From contig NW_027590151.1 in the NCBI RefSeq assembly GCF_964213995.1, positions 620,001-684,000 of the forward strand: a stretch of 64,000 bases of DNA, given 5' to 3'. The translations under genes were made by a program, and so were the position numbers. Under the pieces are notes generated by a model that saw only the letters and a program-made list of their open reading frames with translations, was not told the origin of the DNA and ran no database searches. Numbering within the stretch: the stretch's first letter is position 1; the number at the start of each line of letters is the position of its first letter. The stretch comes from Mustelus asterias. Its lineage: Eukaryota. Positions 148 to 62,568 of the stretch are shown piece after piece.

Positions 148-1462
148 GTTTGCAGAGAGCTCGCGGCGGATCTGACCAGAGCGGGTGGGAGATGTCATTG
201 TTTCAGTTAAGAGTTGAAAGAGGCGGAGTCATATCCAGGCCCCTGTGGATTGGTTCACTGCTGGAAACATCATCAGATGACATCCAATCGGCTTCAAGCT
301 CCTTTGTTCTTCAGTTCACCCAATGATCTCACAGCTCCTTTATCTCCAATTCACCCCATAGGCGGAGAGACGGAAGGAACAAAGTGAAGTTGGCCATCCC
401 ACGGCAGGGGATTATTTTCCTCTTCAACAGTTATTTCATGAACCGACCGGTCCCCTGAGTGTTGATGGGTCTGTTCTGACATGGAGAATGACAATGTTCA
501 TCCCTACAGCAACATGTCAAGCAGTTTGTTATCGATCATGTTTGGGACAGCAGCTACAGTGCGGGGGAGGATGAATTTTTAGTTGAAACATGTACTTCAC
601 AAGAAGTGGTAGAATAATGAAGAGTCTGTGATATTTCCATACGATCTTCCCTCAATTTGTAACTTTGCCGCCTGTGAAATCCTCTTTCAGAGTGGAAGTA
701 TAGCTTGCCACGCCATTGGACTGCTGATCCAATCGGTGCCAAACAGGGAAAAGCAGCAAAGGTCAATATCTACAATAAAATCTCTAATAAAACAACACAG
801 ATGAGGCAGGTCAAAGTGAGAACCACACAGGAAAGCTGTGGGTGTGGCTGCCATAGGCAGTGTGGTGAGATGTAGAATTTATCTGCAAGGAATTGAACTC
901 AATAACACTATCACATTGGAAATCATATAAATTTGCCTGTCTGTAGGAGCGGCAGCTGAATGTTCATTCCATACCGCGGACCAACAGTCTCGCACCAGGA
1001 AGGTCAGGGTTAGTAAATGATCCAATACAAAGCGGGATCTTCATCAGTGATGTAGATGGAAAGTGGGACCGAATAGCTGAGTAGCTGGATTGGAGAGGTT
1101 CTCAATGAATGTACGAGGTAACAGAAAAAGCTTTAAATGTTTACGTTAAAGGTTGGGGAAGGGAAAGGGACACAATTTCCATAAATCAGCAGACAAGGAC
1201 AGTCTGGGACAAATAGGCAGGGAAAGGCATCGAAAACCAAAGAGAAGGCGTTGATGTATCTCAGATCGATTTGTCAATCTTAATTCAATTGCACATGTCA
1301 GTTACGATCATTGACAAATATAGCTGCAATGGGACCACACCAGTTGCTGTTTTTGAGTGTTGTCATTTGTTGCAATGTTAAGAGTTTTCGACACTCTGTG
1401 GAAACTGTATTACCTGCGATAATGTGTGAGCGCACCCTGCTGGGCACTAACTGGAAGTCTGG

Positions 1463-1502
1463 GGTTTTTGCACGGCATTCACTATATCTCTGCAGCAGTG
1501 TG
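1463..1502 (-). other. Recombination signal sequence of V2 (CACACTG, 24-nt spacer, GCAAAAACC)
   Basis: Heptamer at 1502-1496 abuts the coding end; nonamer at 1471-1463; the spacer is 24 nt (23+1). Confidence 0.85.
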
Positions 1503-1806
1503 GGCTTCGTGGCACAGAAGTACACGGCGCTGTCGTAGATCAGTGTGTTACTGATCGTTAGTTCGGTAATCGTGTTCTTTTTATTAAATTTGGAAGAAAA
1601 CCGATCATTGAGGTCGGTGTTCCTTTGCACGTTCTCACCTATAAGCTGAAACATGTACACTGGAGCTTTCCCGGGCTGCTGACTGTACCAGTACACATGA
1701 GGGCTGGAATCGCTTGTTTTCAAGGTACAGGTTAGTGTGACATTACTTTCCTCTTTAACCGATATTTCAGGATCCATTTGTTCCACTTTGTCTTGGAGGG
1801 TCCATT
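1503..1806 (-). CDS. TCR alpha/delta V exon (V2), open frame; functionality doubtful because of its leader
   Basis: Polypyrimidine tract and AG acceptor at 1808-1807. Ig V-set motifs: VTLTC, VYWYSQQPGKAP, DSAVYFCATKP. An RSS follows directly. Confidence 0.9.
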
Positions 1807-1923
1807 CTAACAGAAACAACAGCAATAATGACAATCAGAGTCAGCCTCATATTACCGATTGCAAGCGTTTATGTCGCTGATGTAAATCACCATTTAAAGT
1901 CAACAAGGCTGGATGTAATTGTT

Positions 1924-2055
1924 GAGCTCTGATGAAGGGTCATCCAGACTCGAAATGTCGGCTCTATTGTCTCCACAGATGCTGTCAGACCGGCTGAGAT
2001 CCCAGCATTTTCTGTTTTGTTTCAGATTCCAGCAGCCGCAGTCATTTGCTTTATC
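1924..2055 (+). mobile_element. Penelope-like terminal repeat fragment with a minimal hammerhead ribozyme motif (1924-1964)
   Basis: GAGCT-CTGATGA-A-GGGTC(ATCCA)GACTC-GAAA-T-GTC-GGCTC. The same repeat recurs near 11930, 22920, 31160, 37815, 45135 and 55820. Confidence 0.7.
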
Positions 2056-2369
2056 TTAAGAGATTGTTCCTCAACTTGAAATTGACAAAATAAATTGATA
2101 CGATTGGCTGATTCAAACATCCAAATGGAATGTTTAAGGGAACAATCACATGGTCAGAACAAAAAGAAACTAACAACTAACAGTCAGGTGGTTCCTCAGC
2201 GTCAAAAACTATTTATTTTGCACAACAATACTTCTACTTGAATTTGGGTTAATTTAGGAAAAAAAGTCAGGGAAAATTTAGTGAGTTATTTTTAGGTTAT
2301 GAAAGACTATCCAAAACTAAGATGGTCTTGATAATGCCTGAAATCAAACATGATTATAATATATGAAAT

Positions 2370-2650
2370 ATGATATGGGGTAGGCCATTTAGGAGTGAGA
2401 TGAGGAGAAATATCTTTATGCAGAGAGTGGTGAACTTGTGGAATTCACCAGCACAGAAGGCTGTGGAAGCCAAAACATTAGAAATATATCTATTTCCTTC
2501 TGAGATATATTCAGACTCTGAAAGCATCAAGGAGTTTGGGGAGATCAGTGGAGAATGGTGTTGAGATAAGGGATCAGGCATGATCATATTGAACAGCAGA
2601 GCAGGCTCAAAGGGCCAAATGACCTACTCCTGCTTCTATTTTCTATGTTT
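2370..2650 (+). mobile_element. CR1 LINE 3' end fragment
   Basis: FRSEMRRNIFMQRVVNLWNSP, the CR1 ORF2 C-terminus, followed by a typical 3' UTR ending ttctatgtttct. Confidence 0.8.
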
Positions 2651-2710
2651 CTGGAAGTCAACAAAACAAGATTCTCATCAGGACTGTTGTTAAAGAGGGA
2701 AACATCTCAC

Positions 2711-2757
2711 TGCAGTGAATTGGAATGCAAACAAACTGAATGATGACCGTATAACAT
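2711..2757 (-). pseudogene. Candidate leader exon of V2 with a +1 frameshift
   Basis: ATG...A followed by a GTGAGA donor. It is 47 nt versus 46 nt for the paralogous V3 leader; removing one base gives a hydrophobic MLYGIIQFVCIPIHC. Confidence 0.45.
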
Positions 2758-3072
2758 TTCCAATCTCTCGGGCGTGGATAGAGAGGTGAAATAGCTTTTG
2801 GTTTTCCAGTACCTCTTCTGGGTGCTCTAATTTAAATCGCTACTCTATAATGGTGAGAATTCCCTGCAGTCGATAGCGGCGGACATTGGGTCCTCAGCGA
2901 TTGGAAAAGACCAGAATGGGAAATAGATAAACAACACATTGTAAATGAACTAAATGGTGAGGGAAAGCGGATTGTCTATTTGATGGATTTGAGCAGAATG
3001 GGGATGTGTGTTCAGCCCACGGACTCGGTGATCATGAGTTGATAATTAGAAATTAGATTATTTATTTTTAAA

Positions 3073-3357
3073 AGTTGAAGTTTATCTATTAGTGAAAAGT
3101 AAGGCTTACATTAACGCTGCAATGAAGTTACTGTGAAATTCCCCTAGTCGCCACACTCTGGCGCCTGTTCTGTTCAATGCACCAAACCAACACATCTTTC
3201 AGTCTGTGGGAGGAAACCGGGGCACCAGGAAGAAATCCACGTCGACAAGGGGAGAACGTGCAAACTTCACACAGACAGTGACCCAAAACGGGAATCGAAC
3301 ACAGGTCCGTGGCGCTGTGAGGCAGCAATGCTAACCACTGTGCCACTACCGCCCACG
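3073..3357 (-). mobile_element. tRNA-derived V-SINE, second shark family
   Basis: Head GGCACAGTGGTTAGCA..., V-domain core, and tail ...CACAGTAACTTCATTGCAG...AATAAACTT. Other copies at about 4196-4500(+), 29428-29710(-), 40009-40253(+), 49132-49433(+), 49757-50010(-) and 51607-51904(+). Confidence 0.85.
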
Positions 3358-3939
3358 GTAATAACAATGTTCCCCTCCTATCATCACTTCCATAAGGATT
3401 GGGGAGGTGAAGATTCTGGATGCAGTCAAAGGGAAGAGAAATAAAGAGATAATGGAGAAAGAAATGGATGAAAATTCTGAGTGAGTGATATGAAGTGAGG
3501 ACGTCCTCTGGGATGTAAAACCAACAGAGATCAATTTTGTGAAAAGGTTTATTTTAAGAATGTCGATATCCGCGTTAAATGTACTCAATGACCTACCATT
3601 TACAGCACTCTGGGATACAGAATTCCACAGATTATCAACCTTTTAAGAAAATAATTTTATCTTCATCTGTTCTAAATCTGCTGTCCCTTTAGCCATGACT
3701 TCTCGTTCTAGATTGCCCCACACGTGGAAATATCCTCTCGATGTCCACTCTGTCAATCCCCGTTAGCATCTTACATTCCGCAATGAGATCACCCACCATT
3801 CTTCTAAACGCATTCTTCTTGTCATGGCATCATGCTCGAATTGCTGGAAATAGTGGAGGATTATTCAGTGAATGCAGACGCTGGTGATGTGAAAAGTGGG
3901 GACAAGAGTAACCTTATAATCATTCTGGAAGGAAGAGAA

Positions 3940-5300: not shown

Positions 5301-6765
5301 TCACTCTTTAATTAACTTCACAATCCGAGTAAATGGAAATTTCACCAGCTTCTTCAGATCCTTTCTGAATTGTGTCTGGGTCACTGCATAAATGCATGTG
5401 TTGGTGCAGCAACTCAGGAGTTGAAGCATAAATCCCAGTTCGATTACACACCCAGGTATGTAGAAAATGATTACACGTAAATCATACAATCGTAGACAAA
5501 AAGAACTGAACAGGTACACTGACCATAACAGGATAAAATTTGCAGATAGAGAAAACAGTAAGATGATAGATTTCCTTCGCTTCTCTATCTCTGGGTCAGT
5601 TGCAATCTCGCCACTCGTGGGGCTCCGAAATCTCTTGCGGATTTTGCTCGACATTAGAATATGTTTAACGGTTAAAACATTGAGCAGCAGAATCAACAAG
5701 AAAGGAACAAACGGTGTTAAAATATAATGTAGATTTTCAACTGCTCCCCATATTGGTGAATTCCTGACATCTGAAAGTACAGAACAAAAATAAGGAGAAT
5801 TTGCAAACAAATATGTATCCTCACACATGAAGTACCAGAAAGTGTTCTTTACACTGAACAGCACACTCACTGTTCCGAGAACCACAGCTGCCGTTTTCTC
5901 GGTGCAGTATTTTATTTTCAGCTTCTGCCAGGTAATGGCCACGAATCGATCAAAGGTGAACGTGACAGTAAACCAAACAGAACAATCAGTGACAGCATAA
6001 AGCAGGACGGCATGGATATTACACACTTTAATATTATAGACGAATAGAAATTGATCACTAAAAATGATAGGAATTTGCCTCAACATGAGATCAATGATGA
6101 CGACCAGCAGATCTGCCGCTGACATGGAGATTAGGTAACGTGTGACACATTTGGAAAGTCCACATCTTCCTCGAGACAGTATAAGAATCGTTATTAAGTT
6201 CACTGTAAGGAAGAGAGACACAATTAACTCACATTTCAGACTGAAAACAGGAGCAGTGGTCTGTCAGGATTCTATGGAACAGCTGCAGCATTTTTACAGA
6301 ATCAGCCGAAGAATAAAATTGATTTATCTGTTCTGCTGAGACAGGGTGTACAGTCATAAAGCACTGCACTGATGTAGCAAGAAACCAGATTCACCAACAG
6401 ATCTGATCTCCAAGGCAGCAAAGAAGCCGGCAGAGATGGGGAACGAATGGGGTGATCAAGGAGATGGGGTGGGGGGGATGTTGGCAGAGAGGGGGAAGGG
6501 AAGGAAATAGAGTGCAACCACCAGGCGCGAGTAGGGAGAATGGCTGCCGGGAGGAGAGAGAAATCTTCCAACTGCATTAGCACATAAGGAACATAACGTT
6601 TGCAAATAATAATATTATTAAGTGCTTTTCATGGACACGGGCAATAACCGGAGTGAAATTAGACTCACCAGTCACACCAACTGCAGCGAGGAGTGGGTAG
6701 TAAGTCCTTTGGATATCGCGAAGTACCCAAATTATACGAAGCTCAAGTGGAACAACCCAGAACAT
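5301..6765 (-). CDS. Class A orphan GPCR, GPR139-like, two exons (6765-6669 and 6202-5301), 332 aa
   Basis: Exon 1 MFWVVP...YYPLLAAVGVT ends G/GTGAG. Exon 2 follows a cttacAG acceptor and continues VNLITILILSRGRCGLSKC. It has hydrophobic TM segments, ADLLV (TM2), FTFDRF (TM3) and NTCIY (TM7). Splice phases match and the frame is intact (999 nt). Confidence 0.88.
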
Positions 6766-16269: not shown

Positions 16270-18820
16270 TAACAGACCACCCAACAGCTCACGGGAAGTG
16301 GAGGAAAGGATATGTCAGGAGATTCTGGATAGGTGCAGAAAACATAGGGCTGTTGTAGTGGGGGACTTTAATTTCCCTGGCACAGACTGGAAAGTGCTTA
16401 GAGCTGGGGGACCGGACGGGGAGGAATTTGTAAAATGCGTACTGGAAGGTTCTTTGGAACAGTATGTAGATAGCCCGACTAGAGAGGGGGCTATACTGGA
16501 CCTAGTTCTGGGAAATGAGCCCGGTCAGGTCGTCAAAGTTTCGGTAGGGGAACATGTGGCAAATAGTGACCACAACTCTATTAACTTTAGGATAGTAATG
16601 GACAAGGATGAGTGCTGTCCTACGGGCAGGGTGCTAAATTGGGGGAAGGCTGACTATAGCCGGATTAGGCAGGAATTGGTGGATGTTGATTGGGAGAGGA
16701 TGTTCGAGGGTAAGTCCGCGTCTGGCATGTGGGAGTCTTTTAAGGAACTATTGATAAGGCTGCAGGATAGGCATGTGCCTGTAAAAAGGAAAGATAGGAA
16801 AGGTAGGATTCGAGAGCCGTGGATAACCAGGGAAATTGAGGATCTGATTAAAATGAAAAGGGCGGCGGACGTCAAGTCCAGGCAACTGAAAACAGATGGA
16901 GCTCTGGAGGAATACAGAGAGAGTAGGAAAGATCTCAAACGGGGAGTTAGAAGGGCAAAAAGAGGTCACGAGATGTTCTTGGCAGGCAGGATTAAGGAGA
17001 ATCCTAAGGCATTCTATTCATACGTTAGGAACAAAAGAGTTGTCAGGGAGAAAATCGGACCTCTCAGGGACAAAGGAGGGGAATTATGTTTAGAACCCAA
17101 GGGAATAGGGGAGATCCTAAATGAATACTTTGCATCGGTATTCACGAAGGAGAGGGGCGTGTTAACCGGGAGTGTCTCGGAGGGAGGTGTTGACCCGTTA
17201 GAGAAAATCTCCATTACAAGAGAGGAAGTGTTAGGTTTTTTAGGGAACATTAAAACTGACAAAGCCCCAGGGCCTGATGGCACCTATCCTCGACTGCTCA
17301 GGGAGACGAGAGGTGAAATTGCTGGGCCTCTGACGGAAATCTTTGTCACTTCTTTGGACACGGGTGAGGTCCCTGAGGATTGGAGGATAGTGAATGTGGT
17401 CCCGTTGTTTAAGAAGGGTAGCAGGGATAACCCAGGAAATTATAGGCCGGTGAGCTTGACATCCGTGGTAGGAAAGTTGTTGGAGAGGATTCTTAGAGAC
17501 AGGATGTATGTGCATTTAGAACGGAACAATCTCATTAGTGACAGACAGCATGGTTTTGTAAGAGGGAGGTCGTGCCTTACAAATTTGGTGGAGTTTTTTG
17601 AGGAAGTGACAAAAACGGTTGATGAAGGAAGGGCCGTGGATGTCGTCTATATGGATTTCAGTAAGGCATTTGACAAAGTCCCACATGGCAGGTTGGTTAA
17701 GAAGGTTAAGGCTCATGGGGTACAAGGAGAAGTGGCTAGATGGGTGGAGAACTGGCTTGGCCATAGGAGACAGAGGGTAGTGGTTGAAGGGTCTTTTTCC
17801 GGCTGGAGGTCTGTGACCAGTGGTGTTCCGCAGGGCTCTGTACTGGGACCTCTGCTATTTGTGATATATATAAATGATTTGGAAGAAGGTGTAACTGGTG
17901 TAATCAGCAAGTTTGCGGATGACACGAAGATGGCTGGAATTGCGGATAGCGAAGAGCATTGTCGGGCAATACAGCAGGATATAGATAGGCTGGAAAATTG
18001 GGCGGAGAGGTGGCAGATGGAATTTAATCCGGATAAATGCGAAGTGATGCATTTTGGAAGAAATAATGTAGGGAGGAGTTATACAATAAATGGCAGAGTC
18101 ATCAGGAGTATAGAAACACAGAGGGACCTAGGTGTGCAAGTCCACAAATCCTTGAACGTGGCAACACAGGTGGAGAAGGTGGTGAAGAAGGCATATGGTA
18201 TGCTTGCCTCTATAGGACGGGGTATAGAGTATAAAAGCTGGAGTCTGATGATGCAGCTGTATAGAACGCTGGTTAGGCCACATTTGGAGTACTGCGTCCA
18301 GTTCTGGTCGCCGCACTACCAGAAGGACGTGGAGGCATTGGAGAGAGTGCAGAGAAGGTTTACCAGGATGTTGCCTGGTATGGAGGGTCTTAGCTATGAG
18401 GAGAGATTGGGTAGACTGGGGTTGTTCTCCTTGGAAAGACGGAGAATGAGGGGAGATTTAATAGAGGTATACAAGATTATGAAGGGTATAGATAGGGTGA
18501 ACAGTGGGAAGCTTTTTCCCAGGTCGGAGGTGACGATCACGAGGGGTCACGGGCTCAAGCTGAGAGGGGCGAAGTATAACTCAGACATCAGACGGACGTT
18601 TTTTACACAGAGGGTGGTGGGGGCCTGGAATGCGCTGCCAAGTAGGGTGGTGGAGGCAGGCACGCTGACATCGTTTAAGACTTACCTGGATAGTCACATG
18701 AGCAGCCTGGGAATGGAGGGATACAAACGATTGGTCTAGTTGGACCAAGGAGCGGCACAGGTTTGGAGGGCCGAAGGGCCTGTTTCCTGTGCTGTACTGT
18801 TCTTTGTTCTTTGTTCTTTG
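16270..18820 (+). mobile_element. Young 5'-truncated CR1 LINE with an uninterrupted ORF2 remnant (16298-18739, 813 aa; partial APE plus RT)
   Basis: APE motifs GDFN and SDHN; RT motifs YMDFSKAFD, GVPQGS and FADD; (TTCTTTG)n tail. Confidence 0.95.
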
Positions 18821-20025: not shown

Positions 20026-20686
20026 CCAGAGTAAGTGTTCCAGTTAGTGCTCAGCAGAGGGCGCTCTCACGCCGTGAGACGGTGACAATAAAGGCAAAGT
20101 CGCCATAGCCGCAGAGGCTGGAGGCGATTTAACCTGAGGATCGCACATCGCCTCAGGAGAGCGGTCGAGGTTGAGATGGCGGCAGCTTCATGAATGACCT
20201 CACCGGGTACAGATATTGATGCTTTGCATCACTAACCAGATATCCAGCAACTGAGCTGAACGACAATATTCTCATTGCTTGTTGTACCTGTAAGAGAACA
20301 TTTGTGATTCACGCACGAGGACAGGCAAATCCCTTTGAATCTCAGACTTCTGCAATCTCGCACCTTTTATTTAATACGCTTCTTTCCTGCCAAAATGCAT
20401 CACATCACATTCGCTATTTTTGACTTTCTTCTTTGCATTGCTTCCGGATTTTTTGAGCTCTTTACGTATTCTTACTGCACTTTTTCGCTTTGTCTTTCTT
20501 TCATTCGGATTTGCATGTAACCTCTTCCATTTTCTTTGAATACATTCCCAACTCTCTTCATTTTAAGCTTTTTAAAATTTTCTGATTCAAGAAATGTTTT
20601 GCTCTCACCCCCCTTACCATTGGAATTTAATACCGCGCTTGTTGAAACACTGATATTTCTGCGGAGCGGTTTTTGAAAACGGTGCA

Positions 20687-20725
20687 GGTTTTGGTACGGG
20701 ACCTCCCTGTGTTTATTACAGTGTG
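20687..20725 (-). other. 23-RSS of V4 (CACACTG, 23-nt spacer, ACCAAAACC)
   Basis: Heptamer at 20725-20719, nonamer at 20695-20687. Confidence 0.88.
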
Positions 20726-21175
20726 CCTCATGGTGCAGAAATAGGTGGCAGTGTCTGAAACCTGTACGTCTCTCACAGTCAGGATGCTGAGTTTGTTGCC
20801 TTCTCCGATCGAAGCAGTGATCCTCCCGTGTTGATCGGTTCCGCTTGTGGCCATCACCAGATGCTGGGGCGACTGATTCGGGAGCTGTTTATACCAACGC
20901 ACGATGTCAAACGTAATGGAAATAGTGCAGTTCATGGATATATTTCTCGCTTCACTGATAACCATCCGTGGAGGGAGCTGCAGCAACTCAGCTTCTCCGG
21001 TCACCCCCGTGCAGATCAGAGTGAAAAACAACAAAACGTCGATGCAAATCCTGACCACTCTCAGTTCACACACAACACCGAGATCAGCTTTGAACCAGGA
21101 GATGAAAATTAACCCGGAACCAAGTATTTTCTTCGGGTTCAGTTCAGTGCCGTGTTTATGTTGAACTGACAACAT
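20726..21175 (-). pseudogene. TCR alpha/delta V (V4): intact V exon (21006-20726) with decayed leader and splice sites, in one continuous ORF from ATG 21175
   Basis: ISMNC...VRWYKQLPNQSPQHLV...DTATYFCTMR. The acceptor position reads GG (21008-21007) instead of AG, and the leader-like KKILGSGLIFISW has no ATG. Confidence 0.8.
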
Positions 21176-31790: not shown

Positions 31791-34600
31791 AGAACAAAGA
31801 ACAGTACAGCACAGGAAACAGGCCCTTCGGCCCTCCAAGCCTGTGCCGCTCCTTGGTCCAACTAGACCAATCGTTTGTATCCCTCCATTCCCAGGCTGCT
31901 CATGTGACTATCCAGGTAAGTCTTAAACGATGTCAGCGTGCCTGCCTCCACCACCTTACTTGGCAGCGCATTCCAGGCCCCCACCACCCTCTGTGTAAAA
32001 AACGTCCCTCTGATGTCTGAGTTATACTTCGCCCCTCTCAGCTTGAGCCCGTGACCCCTCGTGATCGTCACCTCCGACCTGGGAAAAAGCTTCCCACTGT
32101 TCACCCTATCTATACCCTTCATAATCTTGTATACCTCTATTAGATCTCCCCTCATTCTCCGTCTTTCCAAGGAGAAGAACCCCAGTCTACCCAATCTCTC
32201 CTCATAGCTAAGACCCTCCATACCAGGCAACATCCTGGTAAACCTTCTCTGCACTCTCTCCAATGCCTCCACGTCCTTCTGGTAGTGCGGCGACCAGAAC
32301 TGGACGCAGTACTCCAAATGTGGCCTAACCAGCGTTCTATACAGCTGCATCATCAGACTCCAGCTTTTATACTCTATACCCCGTCCTATAAAGACAAGCA
32401 TACCATATGCCTTCTTCACCACCTTCTCCACCTGTGTTGCCACCTTCAAGGATTTGTGGACTTGCACACCTAGGTCCCTCTGTGTTTCTATACTCCCGAT
32501 GACTCTGCCATTTATTGTATAACTCCTCCCGACATTATTTCTTCCAAAATGCATCACTTCGCATTTATCCGGATTAAATTCCATCTGCCACCTCTCCGCC
32601 CAATTTTCCAGCCTATCTATATCCTGCTGTATTGCCCGACAATGCTCTTCGCTATCCGCAATTCCAGCCATCTTCGTGTCATCCGCAAACTTGCTGATTA
32701 CACCAGTTACACCTTCTTCCAAATCATTTATATATATCACAAATAGCAGAGGTCCCAGTACAGAGCCCTGCGGAATACCACTGGTCACAGACCTCCAGCC
32801 GGAAAAAGACCCTTCGACCACTACCCTCTGTCTCCTACTCAGTACATGACCCCTCTAAGTTGTCTACCCTCTGCACCGCGGTAATATGCTCCTTAACTAA
32901 TATCGCTACTCCCCCACCTTTTTTAGCCCCTCCTCTGTCTCGCCTAAAACACTTATACCCCGGAATATTCAGTTGCCAGTCCTGTCCTTCTTTTAACCAA
33001 GTTTCCGTCACCGCAACCACATCCAAATTCCGCACAAGCATTAAGGCCCTAAGTTCGTCTGTTTTACCCGTTACACTCCTCGCATTGAAGCAGATGCACT
33101 CCAGACCTCCAGGCCCAGTCAGGTCCTCCTCCTCCAGAGTGCTCCTCTTCTTAGCTAGCCTTGCCCTGGCCCCCAGCTCGACCCCAGCCTCAGTATTTAC
33201 TGACCTCCTGTTTTGTTCCCCACCCCCCTGCCACACTAGTTTAAATCCTGCCGAAACACTCTAGCAAAACTCCCAGCCAGGATATTTGCTCCCTTCCAGT
33301 TAAGGTGTAACCCATCCTTTCTGTACAGTTGCCATCCTGACTTGAAGATTTCGCAGTTATCTATGAATTTAAAACCCTCCCTCTTGCACCAGTCCTTTAG
33401 CCACGTGTTCAACTGTAGAATCTCCCTGTTCCGAGCCTCACTTGCACTCGGCACCGGGAGCAGTCCAGAGATTGCTACCCTGGAGGCCTTACTTTTTAGC
33501 CTAGCACCCAACTCCCTGAATTTCTCTCGTATGACCCCGCTGCTCTTCCTACCTACATCATTTCCCCCAATGTGTACAATCACATCCGTTTGACTCCCTT
33601 CCTTTTTAAATATGCTTCCTACCCTCTCGGAGACATCCAGTACCCCAGCACCAGGGAGGCAGACTACCATCCTGGATTCTCGTTCAGTCCCACAGAAGCG
33701 CCTGTCCATGCCTCTAACCATTGCGTCCCCCACAACTATCGCTCTCCTAAAACCCTTCTTTCCCTTCTGGACCCCTGAGCCTGTCTCCGTGGAGGCGATC
33801 TGGTCCTCGTGGCTTACCCCTGGAGGGTCATCCCCCTCCACAGAATCCAAAACAATATACCTATTTTGGAGGGGGACAACCACAGGGGATCCCTCCACAG
33901 ACTGCTTACTCCCTTCCCTTCTCCCATCTGTTGCCCATTCCTTTCTTTTATGGGAGACTGCCACTGGGGTACTTTCTGGCACATCACCCTTCTGACTATT
34001 ACCCCTCCTAACTGTGACCCACGTGTCTTCCTTCCGAGACCCTGGTGTCACTACCTGACTGTAACTTTTATCTATTACTCGCTCATTTTCCCTAACTAAA
34101 CTGAGTTTATCGAGCCTCAGCTCCAGCTCCCTTACACGATCCTTCAGGAGATGCAGTTCTACGCATCTGGCATAGATATGGACTTCCGGGAGGCAACTTG
34201 TCTCCAGGAACTCCCACATCCCACACCGAATGCAGTATACTGGCCTCCCACTCATATCAGCCATGTCCTTTTTAGTTTTGGGGATGAAACAAAAAGGGGG
34301 TGTAACCGAAGAAAAACAAACAAACAACCTTCCTCGCCTTCGCCGAAGCCCTGTGAGCCAAAGCCCTTTTAGCTCTCACTCTGTCCCCTGCTCACTCCGC
34401 TGCCCGCTAACGACGCTGCCCGCTCAAAGGTGCGGCCTACTTTTAAACCCTCCAAAACCTTCCCAGGCTGCTGCTGGGCCTATTTCCTGTTTAGAAAAAA
34501 AAACCTCCGATTTCTTTCACTAATTTAACTGAAAAAATAATTAAATAAATTCGTGCACACACAAGCTCCCTTACCCTCAGCCTGCTCCTGTGGAACAATG
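31791..34600 (-). mobile_element. CR1 LINE with 5' UTR, ORF1 and an internally deleted ORF2; TSD AGTCA
   Basis: TSD at 31786-31790 and 34601-34605. The empty site is present in the paralog at 55350-55354. The ORF2 APE N-terminus (33236-32835) is joined to the RT C-terminal part (32821-31862). Confidence 0.93.
33236..34264 (-). CDS. CR1 ORF1p: zinc-finger-like motif, coiled coil and SGNH esterase-like domain, 342 aa
   Basis: CxxC (YCIRCGMW), a leucine heptad, VVGDAMVRG, HIGGND and DGLHLN. Confidence 0.88.
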   Translation of the reverse strand: MADMSGRPVYCIRCGMWEFLETSCLPEVHIYARCVELHLLKDRVRELELRLDKLSLVRENERVIDKSYSQVVTPGSRKEDTWVTVRRGNSQKGDVPESTPVAVSHKRKEWATDGRREGSKQSVEGSPVVVPLQNRYIVLDSVEGDDPPGVSHEDQIASTETGSGVQKGKKGFRRAIVVGDAMVRGMDRRFCGTERESRMVVCLPGAGVLDVSERVGSIFKKEGSQTDVIVHIGGNDVGRKSSGVIREKFRELGARLKSKASRVAISGLLPVPSASEARNREILQLNTWLKDWCKREGFKFIDNCEIFKSGWQLYRKDGLHLNWKGANILAGSFARVFRQDLN

Positions 34601-35914: not shown

Positions 35915-36757
35915 TCACTCGTGAACTTGTTGGTGTCTCAGCAGCTGGGATGAAACTGTGAATCCCGTCCCACACTGAGAGCAGGTGAATGGCCTCTCCC
36001 CAGTGTGAACTCGCTGGTGTCTCAGCAGGACGGATGACCAAGTGAACCTCTTCCCACACTGAGAGCAGGTGAACGGTCTCTCTCCAGTGTGAACGCGCTT
36101 ATGTGCCCGCAGGTTGGATGACCGAGTGAATCCCTTCCCACACTGAGAGCAGGTGAATGGCCTCATCCCAGTGTGAACTCGCTGGTGTGTGCGCAGATTG
36201 GATGAATGACTGAATCCCTTCTCACACTGAGAGCAGGTGAATGGCCTCTCACCGGAGTGAAGTCGCTGGTGTGTCTGAAGGTTGGATAACCGACTGAACC
36301 CCTTCCCACACTGAGAGCAGGTGAATGGTCTCTCCCCTGTGTGAACTCGCTGGTGCGTCTGCAGGTGACATAACTGACTGAAACCCTTCCCACACTGAGA
36401 GCAGGTGAACGGCCTCTCACCAGCGTGAAGTCGTCGGTGTGTCTGAAGATTGGATAACCGACTGAAACCCTTCCCACACTGAGAGCAGGTGAAGGGCCTC
36501 TCCCCAGTGTGAACTCGCTGGTGTGTCTGCAGGGTGCATGACTGAGTGAATCCCTTCCCACACTGAGAGCAGGTGAAGGGCCTCTCCCCTGTGTGAACAC
36601 GCTGGTGTATCTGCAGCTGGAATAACCGAGTGAATCCCTTCCCACACTGAGAGCAGGTGAATGGTCTCTCCCCAGTGTGACTGCGCCGATGAGCTTCCAG
36701 CTCTGATGGGGATCTGTATCTCTTCCCACAGTCCCCACATTTCCATGGTTTCTCCAT
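35915..36757 (-). CDS. C2H2 zinc-finger protein ZNF-1, 10 fingers, 280 aa, no effector domain
   Basis: The first real ATG (GCACCATGG) gives MEKPWKC, followed by TGERPF-linked C-x2-C-x12-H-x3-H repeats. The exon acceptor is at 37110-37109. Confidence 0.88.
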
Positions 36758-37229
36758 GGTGCAGGTGTCCTTGCCTCTTTCTTGAGTGGACAATCAGTTG
36801 AAGCCTTGCCCACACACAGAACACGGGTACCGTCTCTCCCCGCTGTGAATGTTGTGATATTTATTCAGGCTGTGTAACTGGTTAAAGCTCTTCAGTCAGT
36901 GCACTGGAACACCCTCACTCGAGTGTGGCCGTGTGTTGGTGCTTTTCCAGTCACACTGACACTTGAAATCTTTTCAAATTGACAAACTGGACAACAATTT
37001 CTCCTTCTAGATTCAATGGCCGATGATATTCAGCTCCCAAGGAATATGACTCTGTCAGATCTAGATGGGACGTTTGAGATTTCGGCCTGTGATTCCTCTT
37101 TCAGTATCCTGTAAAACAAGTTTACAAAAGTCATCAGTGTCAGTACAGGATAGAAATTCAGAACACACAATTCTAGTTTCTATGGAACATTCTTTCCTCT
37201 CTCCAGACTCGAAACATTGGCTCTATTCT

Positions 37230-40379: not shown

Positions 40380-40950
40380 CAGACACACTTACAATCAGGT
40401 TCTGATGAATGGAGTGACTCTGGCAGGTTTTGGTCTGATGTCTGGTTTAAGTTTCCCTTCTAATTTTGTCGTCAAATTTCCTGTAAAAAAAGATCATCAC
40501 TGTCAGTCAAGAATAGAAATTAAGTGAGAAACATTTCTCTTGGGTTGCGTTTTCTGTGTGTAAATCCTCCCCTTCTAACTCCCTGTAAATGGAGTTTCCA
40601 AAGTCCATCCCTGTCAGTCCAGGATAGAAATTCACAACATTCTCTCCTCCTGCTGACAGGGAGCACCGCGCATGCGCACTATTGCCCATCGCCCCGACAA
40701 AGATGGCCTCCGTCAACTCGGGGCCTCCAAATCAGGCATCTGCGGTCGCGGCCCCGAATGGTACGAACGCGACACCGAGCAGTTATTATTCGGGTTTTCC
40801 TGTCTCCACTGGGTGCTTATGAAGCCTCTCCACCCACCCCGCCGCCTCCATTACCCTCCAGAATAATCCGTTTCCCTGGAAACCCGGAGCCGATATAACC
40901 CCCTTGCTGCTACTGCGGCAGCAACATCCACTGCGCATGCGCAAAGTCTA
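40380..40950. promoter_or_regulatory. CpG-rich promoter with two NRF1 motifs next to a minus-strand ZNF acceptor-exon relic
   Basis: CGCGCATGCGCA at 40667-40678 and TGCGCATGCGCA at 40932-40943; AAGATGGC is YY1-like. The relic reads AG/G-ELEGEDLHTEN. Confidence 0.6.
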
Positions 40951-42825: not shown

Positions 42826-43179
42826 GGTTCAGTTCTCCAGCTCCTGTCTGCAGACTGACAATAAAACCAATGGACCTGATTGGTGGTGTTGGAGCCTCCA
42901 GCGGGTGTTTGTGAATCCTCCCCGCCCACCTCCCAGGGTTTCCTTCCTTCCCAGAGATCAGAATCCTCATTGATTTGAGGCCAAAGTGTAACCTCTTATT
43001 TATTGTCCCCCTCCCCCATCCTCTGATGTGAACCATCCTCCAGTGGCTGAGCCAGGATGGGGCCGTTAACCTGGGCCTGTTCCCGGGAGGGAGGGAGGGA
43101 GAAGCCCCGCAGCTGCAAACCAGGGAGCTGACAATGATTCTGAAGGGTTTGCGGATCCACAAAGTGTTTCCAAATCCTC

Positions 43180-43640
43180 CCAGCCACCGCCTAACGCTGA
43201 CTCCGCTTCTCCGGGACAAACAAGCGCCAAGGACAGCAATGACAGTGCGCATGCTCCACATCACAATGCCCGGGAACTGATTGACGGCAGCTCCGGACCA
43301 ATAGGAGGAGGGGGCGGGGCTGGAGGACCGAGCGGGAGCGGCTGGTCCTCCAAGCAATCGGAGTGAATGAGGGGCGGGACCTGAAGCATGCGCAGTGCGG
43401 GTAATGGCGACGGATGGCCGGTTTTATCTTGGAAGCGAGATCAATACGAGGTAGAGGGCGGCGCGCGGGGAATGATAAATGTGGCGGGTGGGTGGAGAGG
43501 CTTTGTAAACATGTTGTTCAAACCCAAACCCCGGAAATGAACTTCCCGGTTCCCCCGCTTTGTACCAAATGGAGCGGCAGCTTGTAGTGTTAGACCCGGG
43601 CTGACTGCCGCCATTGAGGCTGCATGTGGGAGGCCGGCAG
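43180..43640. promoter_or_regulatory. CpG-rich, probably bidirectional, ZNF promoter
   Basis: NRF1-like motifs at 43246 and 43385, CCAAT, GC boxes (GGGGCGGGG), an ETS core (CCGGAA) and GCCGCCAT. It lies between the divergent ZNF-1 and ZNF-2. Confidence 0.65.
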
Positions 43641-43665
43641 GGATTGTGATCGGAGAGTGAAGCCC

Positions 43666-43916
43666 TGACGTCACAATGGAATGGGTGAGAGTGTGACGTC
43701 ACAATGGAATGGGTGGGAGTGTGACGTCACAATGGAATGGGTGAGAGTGTGACATCACAATGGAATGGGTGAGGGTGTGATGTCACAATGGAATGGGTGA
43801 GGGTGTGACGTCACAATGGAATGGGTGAGAGTGTGACGTCACAATGGAATGGGTGAGGGTGTGATGTCACAATGGAATGGGTGAGGGTGTGATGTCACAA
43901 TGGAATGGGTGAGGGT
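43666..43916 (+). repeat. Minisatellite, 9 x 28 bp, each unit starting with a CRE or CRE variant
   Basis: Unit TGACGTCACAATGGAATGGGTGAGAGTG: five TGACGTCA, three TGATGTCA and one TGACATCA. Confidence 0.95.
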
Positions 43917-45135: not shown

Positions 45136-45807
45136 AAAAGCAAATTACTGCGGATGCTGGAATCTGAAACCAAGAGAGAAAATGCTGGAAAATCTCAGCA
45201 GGTCTGGCAGCATCTGTAAGGAGAGAAAAGAGCTGATGTTTCTTGTCTAGATGACCCTTTGTCAAAGCTCTGAAACATCAGTTCTTTTCTCTCCATACAG
45301 CTGCTGCCAGACCTGCTGAGAATGGGGAGAGAGTGTGTGGGATGGAGATTTACAGCTTTTGGGGAATGAGAGAGGAAAGAATGTTCCATAGAAATTGTCT
45401 GTTCTGAATTTCTATCCTGTACTGACACTGATGACTTTTGGAAACTCATTTTACAGGATATTGAAAAAGGAATCACAGGCTGAAATCTCAAACGTCACGT
45501 CTCGATCTGACAGAGTCATATTCCTTGGGACCTCAATATCATCGGACTTTGAATCCAGAAGGAGAAATGATTGTCCAGTCTGTCGATTTGAAAAGATTTG
45601 AAATGTCAGTGTGAGTGAAAAAGCATCGACACACTGTCACACTTGAGTGAGAGTGTTCCAATGCACTGACTAAAGAGCTTTAACCAGTTACACAGTCTGA
45701 ATAAATATCACACCATTCACAGCGGGTAGAGACTGTAATCTTGTTCTGTGTGTGGACGAAGTTTCAACTAATTGTCCACCCAAGAGAGAGGCAAGGACAC
45801 CTGCACC

Positions 45808-46734
45808 ATGGAGAAACCATGGAAATGTGTGGACTGTGGAAAGGGATACAGAGCCCCATCAGAGCTGGAAGCTCATCGGCGCATCCACACCAGGGAGAGA
45901 CCATTCACCTGCTCTCAATGTGGGAAGGGATTCATTCAGTTATCCGACCTGCAGTCACACCAGCGAGTTCACACTGGGGAGAGACCATTCACCTGCTCTC
46001 AATGTGGGAAGGGATTCATTCAGTTATCCGACCTGCAGAGACACCAGCGAGTTCATACTGGGGAGAAACCATTTATCTGCTCTCACTGTGGGAAGGGGTT
46101 CACTCAGTTATCCAACCTGCAGAGACACCAGCGAGTTCACACTGGAGAGAGGTCATTCACCTGCTCTCAGTGTGGGAAGGGATTCACTCGGTTATCCCTT
46201 CTGCAGACACACCAGCAAGTTCACACTGGGGAAAGACCATTCACCTGCTCTCAGTGTGGGAAGGGATTCCCTCGGTTATCCCTCCTACAGACACACCAGC
46301 AAGTTCACACTGGGGAGAGACCATTCACCTGCTCTCAGTGTGGGAAGGGATTCACTCGGGTATCCAACCTGCGGGCACACCAGCGAGTTCACACTGGGGA
46401 GAGGCCATTCACCTGCTCCCAGTGTGGGAAGGGATTCACTCAGTTATCCAGCCTGCTGACACACCAGCGAGTTCACACTGGGGAGTGGCCATTCACCTGC
46501 TCTCAGTGTGAGAAGGGATTCACTCAGTTATCCAACTTGCAGACACACCAGCGAATTCACACTGTAGAGAAACCATTCACCTGCTCTCAGTGTGGAAAGG
46601 GATTCACTCGGTCATCCGACCTGCGGAGACACCAACGCATTCACACTGGGGAGAGGCCATTCACCTGCTCTGTGTGTGGGAAGGGTTTCAGCGTTTCATC
46701 CCGGCTGCTGAGACATCAACAAGTTCACGAGTGA
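45808..46734 (+). CDS. C2H2 zinc-finger protein ZNF-2, 11 fingers, 308 aa, no effector domain
   Basis: ATG in GCACCATGG giving MEKPWKC; exon acceptor ttacAG at 45455-45456; 3' UTR homologous to ZNF-1 and ZNF-3. Confidence 0.88.
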
Positions 46735-53251: not shown

Positions 53252-54429
53252 GACAGGAAGCAGTGAGCATGGATCTGTCAATCAGCCTCAATCAGCACCT
53301 TCAGGAGAATTGGGAGGGTGAATATTAGATACAGCAGAGTGAGAATGGAGGGAGAGTGTGTGGGATGGAGATTCACAGCTTTTGGGGAATGAGAGAGGAA
53401 AGAATGTTCCATAGAAACTAGAATTGTTCTGAATTTCTATCCTGTAATGACACTGATCACTTTTGTAAACTCCTTTTACAGGATATTGGAAGGGGAGGAT
53501 TTACAGACATAAATCTCAAACCTAATGTCACATCAACATCTGACATCCTCACTCAATTCATCGGGATCTGAATATATCGATCTTTGATTCTCAAAGGAGA
53601 AATGTTTCCCTGTTCTGTCTGCTTCAAAAACTTTAATCATTTGTGTGACTGGAAAAGCACCAAGGCACAGATACACCCGAGTGAGAGTGTTCCAATGCAC
53701 TGAGAGTGGTAAGAGCTTTAACCAGTTACACTGCCTGAAAATACATCGCAGCATTCACAGCGGGGAGAGATTGTACCCGTGTTCTGTGTGAGATTTAACT
53801 GATTGTTTAACCTGGAGAGTCACAAGGATACCCACACCATGTAGAAAGCGTGGAAATGTGGGGACTGTGGGAAGGGATTCATATCCCCATCTCAGCTGCA
53901 AGCTCATCGACGCAGTCACACTGGAGAGAGACCATTCACTTGCTGTGTCTGTGGCAAGGGATTCAGTCAGTTATCGAATCTGCGGACACACCAGCGAGTT
54001 CACACTGGGGAGAGGCCTTTCACCTGCTCTCACTGTGGGGAGGGATTCACTTGGTTATCCAGCCTGCAGACACATCAGCAAGTTCATTCTGGCGAGAGAC
54101 CGTTCACCTGCTCTCAGTGTGGGAAGAGATTCACTCAGACATCCCACTTGCAAACACACCAGCGAGTTCACACTGGGGAGAGACCGTTCACCTGCTCTGT
54201 GTGTGGGAAGGGATTCACTGACTTATCCAGCCTGCGAGGATACCAGCGAGTTCACACCGGGGAGAAACCATTCACCTCATCTCAGTGTGGGGAGGGATTC
54301 ACTCAGTCATCCGCCCTGCGGAGACACCAGCGAGTTCACACTGGGGAGAGACCGTTCACCTGCTCTCAGTGTGGGAAGAGTTTCAGAGCTTCATCCACCT
54401 TGCTGAGACACCAACCAATTCACAAGTGA
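53252..54429 (+). pseudogene. C2H2-ZNF pseudogene ZNF-3 (66-nt exon 53252-53317; array 53839-54429, 7 fingers)
   Basis: The ATG at 53839 is immediately followed by TAG. Finger 5 has His>Tyr and finger 6 has Cys>Ser. Confidence 0.85.
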
Positions 54430-59041: not shown

Positions 59042-61710
59042 TTCAATTGAACAGCTTGGTGGGCTGAATTTCTAACTATTTCTTATGATCTGTCAGGAAC
59101 ATGAAATGGTGAGTGTCGATCAGCATTAATTAGCACCTTCAGGAGAATTGGGTAGTTTATATTATAGAACTCATAGAGACCCTACAGTGCAGAAGGAGGC
59201 CATTCGGCCCATCGAGTCTGCACCGACCACAATCCCACCCAGGCCCTACCCCCACATATTTACCCGCTAATCCACGCATCTCAGAACTCTAAGGGGCAAT
59301 TTTTAACCTGGCCAATCAACCTAACCCGCACATCTTTGGACTGTGGGAGGAAACCGGAGCACCCGGAGGAAACCCACGCAGACACGAGGAGAATGTGCAA
59401 ACTCCACACAGGCAGTGACCCAAGCCGGGAATCGAACCCAGGTCCCTGGAGCTGTGAAGCAGCAGTGCTAACCACTGTGCTACTGTGCCGCCCCTAAAGT
59501 TTAAAGTTTATTTATTAGTCACAAGTAAGGCTTATATTAACACTGCAATTTCTCTTAAAGACATTGACATCCTTTGCTCCCCCAGCTTGACACATTGATT
59601 TCTGGCTAAAAAGTCCCTTTCCTAATGTTCACAATTAAAGGGCTGGTTTCCTGAGGAGATGGCTGACATTTAAAAGAACAATAAATTAATATAGGACAGA
59701 GATATGCTTAGTGTTGTTATATTGTAGATTTGATATATTATTTATGGTTCTGTAACAAAGTACATTTATTATTATTTCTCGTTTTGTAATCTAACACTGA
59801 AGCTATGTTATATATTTTCATTCATCGAGTCATTACAGTGCAGGAGGAGTCCATTCAGTAACTCGAATCCATGCTGACTCTCTGTAGAACAATCCAGTCA
59901 GTCCCATTCCCTTTCTATATTCCCTTTCCCCTGCAACTTTATTTCCTTCATGCGCCCATCTAATTTCTGAAATATATTAAAGGGGACAGTAAACTAATAT
60001 CGGACAGAGACGTGTCTGATGTTTTTTTAATTCATCCTTGGGACACGGGCATTGCCGGCTGGGCCAGCATTTATTGCCCATCCCTAATTCCCCTTGAACT
60101 GAATGGCTCGCTCGGCCATTTCGGAGGATGGTTGAGAGTCAACCACATTGCTGTGGCTCTGGAGTCACATGTAGGCCAGACTGGGTAAGGACGGCAGATT
60201 TCCTTCCCTAAAGCACATTAATGAACCAGATGGGTTTTTTGGTCAATCGACAATTGTTTCATGGTCATCAGTAGATTCTTAGTTCTAGATTTTGTTTTTA
60301 AATTCAAGTTCCACCATCTGCCGTGGCAGGATTCGAACCTGGGTCCCCAGAACATCAGCTAAATTTCTGGATTAATAGTCTAGCGATAATACCACGAGGC
60401 TATCAGCTCCCCTGTTATATGGTACAGATTAGATATATTATTTATAGCTCTGTAATAAAATACACTTATTATATCTGGCTGTGTAATTTTGGACTACAGC
60501 TGTATTATATATTTCCAACAATCTCTTCCCTCAGAGAATTGTTAGTATCAAGATTTCTCTTCCATAGGGACCAGTGGAGGGATTGAATATATTCAAGGAT
60601 GAGTTAGACAGTGTTTGAATGACAAGGGAGTCAATAATTATTGGGAACAGGCTGGAAAATGGAGAGAAAGCTCAGGTGAGGAAGGATTTCTTCACTCAAG
60701 GATGTGGTGATGTTTTGGATTCTCTACCACAGAGGACTATAGAGCCTCAGTCATCAAAAATTTTCAAGAGAGGGATTGATAGGTTTCTAGATATTGAAGA
60801 TATCGATGGATGTGGGGGACAGTGTGGGGAAAATAATGCAGAGGTAGATCAACCAATAATCTGAATGAATGGTTGAGCAGACTCGATGGGCCGAATGCTG
60901 ACTGCAGCTCCTATTTGTTCTGATTTCTGTGCTGGACAGGAAGCAGTGAGCATGGATCTGTCAATCAGCCTCAATCAGCACCTTCAGGAGAATTGGGAGG
61001 GTGAATATTAGATACAGCAGAGTGAGAATGGAGGGAGAGTGTGTGGGATGGAGGTTCACAGCTTTTGGGGAATGGGAGAGGAAAGAATGTTCATTAGAAT
61101 CATAGAATTGCTGCATCTTATCAACCGTCCCTGAGCTTTCACAATGAATCCCACTTCTGAGGACACCCTTATCTCTGACTTGTCCGTACTGCTGGCAGTC
61201 TCACAAAGCAGCTGCCTGTGTGCTGATACGGGAGGCCCTGCTCGGCTAGTTTAATGCTTCATGACTGTGTCTCTAATGAATGCTCCATAGAAACTAGAAA
61301 TGTAGATTTAAATTTGGATCGTATTCTGAATTGCGATGTTTTTTCTAAATTGGCTTACAGGATATTAGACAAGGAGAAATCAGACAGAAATCTCCAACAT
61401 CACATCGAGATCTGACAGAGTGACTCGACTTCTTGGGACCTGAATATCATCGGCCTTTGAATCTAGCAGGAGAAATGTTTGTTTGGCCTCTTGGCTTCAA
61501 AGGATTGTAAACATCGCTGTGACTAGAAATGCAGTGAGATACACACACCCGAGTGAGAGTGTTCCAGTGCACTGAGTGTGGAAAGAGCTTTAACCAGTTA
61601 CACAGCCTGAAAATACATTGCAGCATTCACAGCGGGGAGAGACTGTACCCGTGTTCTGTGTGAGATTTAACTGATTGTTTAACCTGGAGAGTCACAAGGA
61701 CACCCGCACC

Positions 61711-62568
61711 ATGGAGAAACCATGGAAATGTGGGGACTGTGGAAAGGGATTCAGATACCCATCTGCACTGGAAATTCATCAACGCAGTCACACTGGGGAG
61801 AGACCATTCACCTGCTCTGTGTGTGGGAAGGGATTCAGTCAGTTATCCAGCCTGCAGACACACAATCTCGCTCACACCAATGAGAGACCGTTTAAATGCT
61901 CTGACTGTGGGAGCGGATTCAAAAGCTCTCAGGTACTGATGATGCACCAGCGCATTCACACTGAGGAGAGACCGTTCAGCTGCTCTCACTGCTCAAAGAG
62001 GTTTAGAACATCATACAACCTGCGGAAACACCAGCGAGTTCACACCGGGGAGAGACCATTCATCTGCTCTGTGTGTGGGAAGGGATTCATTCAGTCATCC
62101 AGCCTGCGGGAACACAATCTCACTCATACCAATGAGAGACCCTTTAAGTGCTGTGACTGTGGAAGTGGTTTTAAAAGCTCTCAGGATCTGGTGTCCCACC
62201 AGCGCATTCACACTGAGGAGAGACCGTTCAGCTGCTCTCACTGCACAAAGTGGTTTAGAAAAGCATACAACCTGCGGATACACCAGCGAGTTCACAACGG
62301 GGAGAAACCGTTCACCTGCTCCAATTGTGGGAAAGGATTCAATCAGTCTTCCAACTTGCTGAAACACCAGCGAGTTCACACTGGGGAGAGACTGTTCACC
62401 TGTTCCAATTGTGGGAAGGGATTCACTCAGTCATCCCATCTGCTGACGCACCAGCGCGTTCACACTGGGGAGAGGCCGTTCACCTGCTCTGTGTGTGGGA
62501 AGAGATTCACTCATTCATCGAACCTGCGCAGGCACAATCTCACTCACACCAAAGAGAGACCGTTTTAA
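61711..62568 (+). CDS. C2H2 zinc-finger protein ZNF-4, 10 fingers, 285 aa, followed by about 7 decayed fingers to 63126
   Basis: GCACCATGG start giving MEKPWKC. The stop arises from an extra T (CCGTTTTAAATG), and the downstream fingers carry stops and frameshifts. Acceptor at 61359-61360. Confidence 0.85.

Follow-up and report, generated by a model that had tools for sequence, protein, structure and literature searches.

The window, the whole 64,000-nucleotide stretch of Mustelus asterias DNA analyzed here, contains four paralogous C2H2 zinc-finger genes. The first lies on the reverse strand, where a reading frame of 280 aa with 10 C2H2 fingers occupies positions 35915..36757. Its start codon falls at the glycine position of a finger linker and together with the lead finger (W-K-C-x-D-C...P..LE.H.R.H) spans 36674..36757 on the same strand, in a strong context (GCACC-ATG-G, with the ATG at 36757). 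Upstream lies a decayed leader (36758..37108, reverse strand), which is what is left of three fingers and, in front of them, a spacer of 43 codons, and is homologous to an open frame on another contig; its 351 nt contain broken fingers, seven stops in the frame of the ATG and not a single ATG. One of these stops, a shared TGA in the first dead finger (36951..36953, reverse strand), corresponds to Trp in intact relatives, and another, the in-frame TGA at the 13th codon before the ATG (36794..36796, reverse strand), is common to the family. A splice acceptor with a pyrimidine tract and a candidate branch A (37109..37135, reverse strand) makes 37108 the first exon base, and the leader is likely, as predicted, the 5' UTR part of the last exon. 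Further upstream on the reverse strand are a candidate 88-nt leader-derived mini-exon (40393..40480, AG...GTAAGT, splicing predicted) and a CpG island with NRF1-like motifs (40600..40950), within which the first exon of the gene is predicted at about 40930-40855. The labels NRF1, YY1, Kozak and branch point refer to general consensus motifs. A second strong-context ATG, out of frame and inside the Pro-Trp codons (36744-36746, reverse strand), follows 11 nt past the start; such an ATG occurs at this distance in 40 of 65 intact genes and opens 230 codons in the second gene of the window. The 25 best Pfam matches of gene 1 are all of zinc-finger type or weak small-domain matches, with no KRAB, SCAN or BTB among them. 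AlphaFold models fingers 1-2 as two ordinary fingers (pLDDT 84), the PDB relatives are generic finger arrays, and shark-annotated relatives share 80-93% identity across the first 40 residues.

The other three copies lie on the forward strand. Gene 2 (45457..46734) consists of a leader and a 308-aa frame with 11 fingers starting at 45808; gene 3 (53482..54426) is a pseudogene; gene 4 (61361..62568) has a leader and a 285-aa frame of 10 fingers from 61711. An earlier note on this DNA had described about 350 nt of decayed leader and a shared stop 13 codons before the ATG in all four paralogs, and this description is accurate: acceptor, leader and AAC-TGA/TAA-TTG are common to all four, the TAA variant being present only in gene 2. 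Its count of three open genes requires revision. Genes 1 and 2 are open, but the frame of gene 4 has a premature stop after finger 10, with broken fingers further on, and the copy at 53839 reads ATG-TAG and is dead. A predicted family-type bidirectional CpG-island promoter occupies 43100..43750. For gene 2, a candidate first exon with an upstream ATG runs as far as 43450; in the predicted mRNA this strong ATG opens a 63-codon frame that could reduce translation of gene 2. Adjoining the promoter, a tandem 28-nt repeat with CRE-like TGACGTCA motifs (43666-43916) is found in other copies too.

The zinc-finger cluster also adjoins two antigen-receptor V-like segments: immunoglobulin V-set frames on the reverse strand at 1298-1777 and 20627-21175, behind each of which a heptamer-like and a nonamer-like motif are spaced by about 23 nt. 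Between them lies a single-frame fragment of a rhodopsin-family GPCR (5301-6125, reverse strand). Long and still open frames of LINE-type reverse transcriptase and GDSL esterase are present at 16598-18739 (forward) and 31862-34264 (reverse).

Family size and the non-coding leader

The start motif, searched as an exact pattern, has 2,724 matches in the genome, and the combination of the -13 stop with the start has 1,577; a further 52 copies have a first base other than T at the -13 stop and five have TGG or TCG there, all reversed-pattern controls giving 0. Taken as pattern counts, in which allelic duplicates may be included, these matches outline a family of shark genes, with about 2,700 copies, whose frames contain zinc fingers alone. 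The earlier note had proposed such a count across chondrichthyan genomes; the count here is for this genome, and the wider comparison covers sharks. An unselected sample of 46 full cassettes, taken from 664 kb regardless of the ATG, retains the ATG in 40 and the stop in 42 cases; 27 cassettes are intact with six or more fingers and 19 are broken. All 27 intact genes have a purine at -3 and at least three in-frame leader stops, and their leaders contain 2.9 ATGs, against 4.2 in the 19 broken cassettes (p 0.02). Most cassettes are located close to a CpG island, often head to head, and near-identical blocks of 4.5-5.6 kb are common to other contigs. A transposon-borne cassette is not favored, since the copies retain introns and island promoters and about 91 of the first 100 copies listed reside on two contigs. 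In many paralogs (L064, L067, L069-L074) a second acceptor and leader start are seen some 0.8 kb in front of the main exon, which suggests 5' exons derived from the leader itself.

The claim of finger-only frames with variable helices is borne out in 65 non-redundant intact genes. Each has 6-19 fingers with canonical linkers in a tandem array within one exon; six residues precede the first Cys, usually one follows the last finger (47/65 genes), and non-finger residues, counted from the predicted start, make up about 2% across the 65 frames. Contact fingerprints are diverse, with 46-56 distinct ones per finger position.

Family members have a non-coding leader, with codon constraint setting in at the ATG. 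On trees of the 46 unselected cassettes the ratio of 0-fold to degenerate changes is 0.97 in the leader (p 0.27) and 0.67 in the ATG and finger 1 (p 0.004), or 0.77 (p 0.03) with the first six codons removed, and the leader accumulates substitutions at the intron rate. Multiples of three account for 40 of the 187 leader indels, in 68 sequences. Copies that lack the -13 stop encounter another in-frame stop within 72 codons, with no in-frame Met, in every case examined, namely 30 of the 52 copies with a changed first base and all five TGG/TCG copies. By comparison with a leader mean of 7.4 changes on the tree, the bases of the acceptor AG show 0 and 1. Read-through recoding of the shared TGA codons is rejected: the leader lacks a codon-position signal and contains many frameshifts, gene 2 carries TAA instead, and at 1, 5 and 4 changes per base the -13 stop is not clearly slower than the leader mean. 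The GA of the first shared stop is invariant in 68 sequences. The middle dead finger (about 36850-36930, reverse strand) evolves at about 5.6 changes per site, compared with 8 elsewhere in the leader, and has no significant codon signal. Contigs of three presumed RNA runs and of a fourth run, all fragmentary and cluttered by repeats and paralogs, were compared with the locus apart from its candidate first exons and gave no interpretable splice joint among 15 joints listed out of 347.

Relatives with an intact leader

At the position of the first shared stop the genome has TGA in 834 matches and TGG, encoding Trp, in 16. Six stop-free matches are found among 150 listed, and the four examined comprise two intact genes and two that are broken further on. 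One intact relative (L200/L217) is a lone copy on its contig, at about 169,139,900-169,142,820 of G000:C1 on the reverse strand. Its spacer, three leader fingers and nine further fingers form one open frame of 384 codons, with Gly in place of the family's Met. At 1.75 kb upstream, an island of the family type offers a candidate ATG and a GTGAGG donor of matching phase, and the predicted protein of 389 aa would have 56 residues before its first Cys: a first exon of 13 residues and an acidic spacer of 43, leading into the three fingers. The other intact relative (L246; G000:C857, from 4,340, forward strand) likewise has an open leader frame and Gly at the Met position; a search for its first exon located none, and an N-terminal domain may exist there. 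The earlier note's placement of the ATG at a linker Gly position is thereby confirmed.

In the two relatives, which lie outside the family, the ancestral leader is still coding and under purifying selection: pN/pS is 0.24 between them over the three leader fingers, and 0.50 between the C1 leader and the family majority (p 0.003). Both are split from all 46 cassettes at 99/98 support in an unrooted tree, in which the C857 gene has a deviant base composition. With intact relatives outside the family tree, the simplest reading is a single loss of the N-terminus before the expansion, in agreement with the earlier proposal that an ancestral N-terminus had turned into 5' UTR by the time the family expanded. 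The same proposal held that the family has no effector domain, and judged from the C1 gene, what disappeared was three fingers preceded by an acidic spacer and a short peptide, with no recognizable effector domain. No domain match was found in the 66 frames scanned of 227 listed near the C1 gene; the spacer had no Atlas match, a weak search for longer proteins containing it found none, and exact look-ups of five frames returned nothing. The first three fingers of the C1 and C857 genes are strongly conserved between the two, which may be old, single-copy genes that recognize an unchanging target. They also represent the before-state of a rare, datable founding of a gene family through N-terminal loss and start-codon recruitment.

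Start-codon recruitment is apparently not confined to the linker Met. Of 99 copies with Gly in the linker, 30 were examined, and in 18 of these a Met precedes the site by exactly 37 codons. They constitute a sister subfamily, in which the last leader finger is kept and the two preceding ones are absent, and Scyliorhinus and Cetorhinus genes are annotated with the same start 37 codons upstream. Since the sister subfamily uses a different Met, new start codons were apparently recruited twice. RefSeq or UniRef models terminate exactly at the first stop in Pristiophorus and Heterodontus and, in one case from Carcharodon, at the second; read from such protein models, and with these sharks taken to represent the two main groups of sharks, this suggests that both stops are older than the divergence of those groups.

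The lead finger and competing explanations

The lead finger combines near-invariant and rapidly changing sites. By parsimony over the 65 non-redundant intact genes, the D between the cysteines shows 1 change, P(+1) 0, E(+5) 2 and the R before the last His 2, all under the 1st percentile of 314 non-coding triplets (mean 11; 1st-99th percentile 3-25). The contact positions -1, +3 and +6 show 25, 34 and 22 changes, above the 97th percentile of the same triplets. The constancy of M, E, K, W and the first Cys is set by the search pattern and uninformative. P(+1) occurs together with E(+5) in only 1 of 555 internal fingers; in the sister subfamily, where this finger stands second, P(+1) is kept in 13/13 genes and E(+5) in 9/13, and a search of longer proteins found the strict motif in 4/8 shark proteins and 0/112 others. 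The conserved first finger of the earlier note is thus real as a motif of four non-contact residues, but its contact residues diversify. From fixed non-contact sites combined with fast contact sites we conclude that finger 1 has probably kept its ability to read DNA and bears an unchanging surface. That this surface binds a partner is about as likely as not; the constancy of D, P, E and R could also be explained by folding or docking to the DNA backbone. The downstream finger frames are under purifying selection: in nine close pairs pN/pS is 0.04 for the core, 0.45 for all sites and 1.04, which is not above 1, for the contacts, and the non-contact sites of finger 1, on few changes, are not under tighter constraint than their counterparts elsewhere in the array (p 0.78).

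On balance, we favor the reading in which the leader is a decayed N-terminal coding part that likely now serves as 5' UTR, and the genes encode finger-only DNA-binders with a fixed partner surface on the lead finger. Stops in the N-terminus would have come first and the expansion afterwards. Transcription from the CpG-island promoter would yield one or more short non-coding first exons, spliced to the acceptor about 350 nt upstream of the ATG; ribosomes would scan through the leader, depleted of ATGs in intact genes, and initiate at the linker Met to give a protein of 6-19 fingers. Finger-only translation from this Met is very probable as a prediction. Diversifying contacts would then provide member-specific targets, and the lead finger one common handle. 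By analogy, these targets are about as likely as not to be repeats or transposons.

A less probable account dispenses with the partner: the proteins would act by occlusion or competition on DNA, and the fixed residues would serve folding, N-terminal stability or backbone contact. The scarcity of residues outside the fingers and the absence of extra constraint on finger 1 in close pairs are compatible with it, as is human ZNF146/OZF, a finger-only LINE-1 binder whose loss was found not to activate LINE-1 (PMC8896011). However, the P(+1)/E(+5) signature also occurs in the fourth finger of the C857 gene and the second finger of the sister subfamily, and so cannot be explained by capping of the N-terminus; ordinary internal fingers do not need it to fold. 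We consider it quite unlikely that passive segmental amplification of a compact cassette produced copies that mostly do little. The 19 broken cassettes, the near-identical blocks and a contact pN/pS near 1 would fit such a process, but recent pairs retain strong core constraint, intact genes retain ATG, acceptor and -3 purine, and the lead-finger contacts change faster than neutral DNA.

Splicing of a concealed N-terminal domain onto the fingers, by way of an acceptor within the 36 nt between stop and ATG, is highly improbable. The CTGAT/CTAAT around the stop is branch-point-like, and two Heterodontus models (P0022, P0026) bypass the stop and fuse in-frame upstream sequence near it. Against this, the three AGs in the 36 nt have no pyrimidine tract and undergo 3-8 changes per base, compared with 0-1 at the true acceptor; in several copies the island is just 0.3-0.5 kb from the acceptor; 75 upstream frames of at least 55 aa from the four genes gave only reverse-transcriptase and sub-threshold Pfam matches, none of effector type; and the upstream-exon peptides in other sharks' models have no common domain. 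That the genes are transcribed and poorly translated, held back by repressive upstream frames that open at leader and first-exon ATGs, or that the RNA itself matters, is hardly credible: the predicted uORFs of gene 2, the frequent second ATG and the slower middle dead finger are outweighed by strong and recent coding constraint on the finger frames and by a gene 1 leader without any ATG.

Under the favored reading of finger-only DNA-binders, the shared start, leader and four fixed residues are practical handles, as one antisense or CRISPR design could reach most members, and a single lead finger is open to partner testing. The family thereby gives access to the question of how the tandem zinc-finger proteins of cartilaginous fish act.

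Comparison with known zinc-finger systems

A literature search, largely without subscription journals, found no description of the shark architecture, and the family is apparently undescribed in print. Cartilaginous fish lack KRAB genes and have tandem zinc-finger counts among the highest (PMC8455134, PMC10547256), with 475-3,586 ZNF ORFs in eight cartilaginous-fish rows of one table (PMC10547256). The KRAB-ZNF genes of lobe-finned fish and tetrapods have the same tandem C2H2 fingers in one last exon and TGEKP-type linkers (PMC10547256, PMC11603059, PMC8835667); their clustered birth-and-death evolution and variable contact residues are both found in the shark family. By contrast, no KRAB exon was found in the shark genes, their start codon lies inside the array, and the C1 relative is without KRAB too. 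In-frame stops, present in every leader examined, block any fusion at the main acceptor, and neither the upstream frames nor the listed protein matches contain KRAB. The genome-wide search with the KRAB profile PF01352 gave 0 matches, its control search being likewise silent.

ZNF146/OZF, with ten fingers, no other domain and LINE-1 binding, is a precedent for a finger-only transposon-binder (PMC8896011), and its fingers-only architecture is that of the shark frames from the predicted start. It is one conserved gene, whereas the shark family has thousands, and the passages of PMC8896011 considered mention no dead leader for it. MOK2 was dropped as a precedent, as the human protein has an acidic N-terminal domain (PMC2806284).

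The FiNZ-ZNF genes of cyprinids are likewise a lineage-specific expansion outside tetrapods, with many hundreds of copies (PMC10547256), and transposon repression has been shown for them (Wells et al. 2023, PMC10547256). FiNZ genes are described there with a dedicated N-terminal domain, whereas the six residues before the first finger of the shark proteins leave no room for one. We raise tentatively a broader reading, possible if doubtful, in which the largest tandem zinc-finger set of the shark genome goes back to an ordinary gene whose first three fingers fell to stop codons and which recruited starts twice; lacking an effector and carrying a built-in cofactor finger that continues to read DNA, the set would constitute a third independent form of transposon control beside KRAB and FiNZ.
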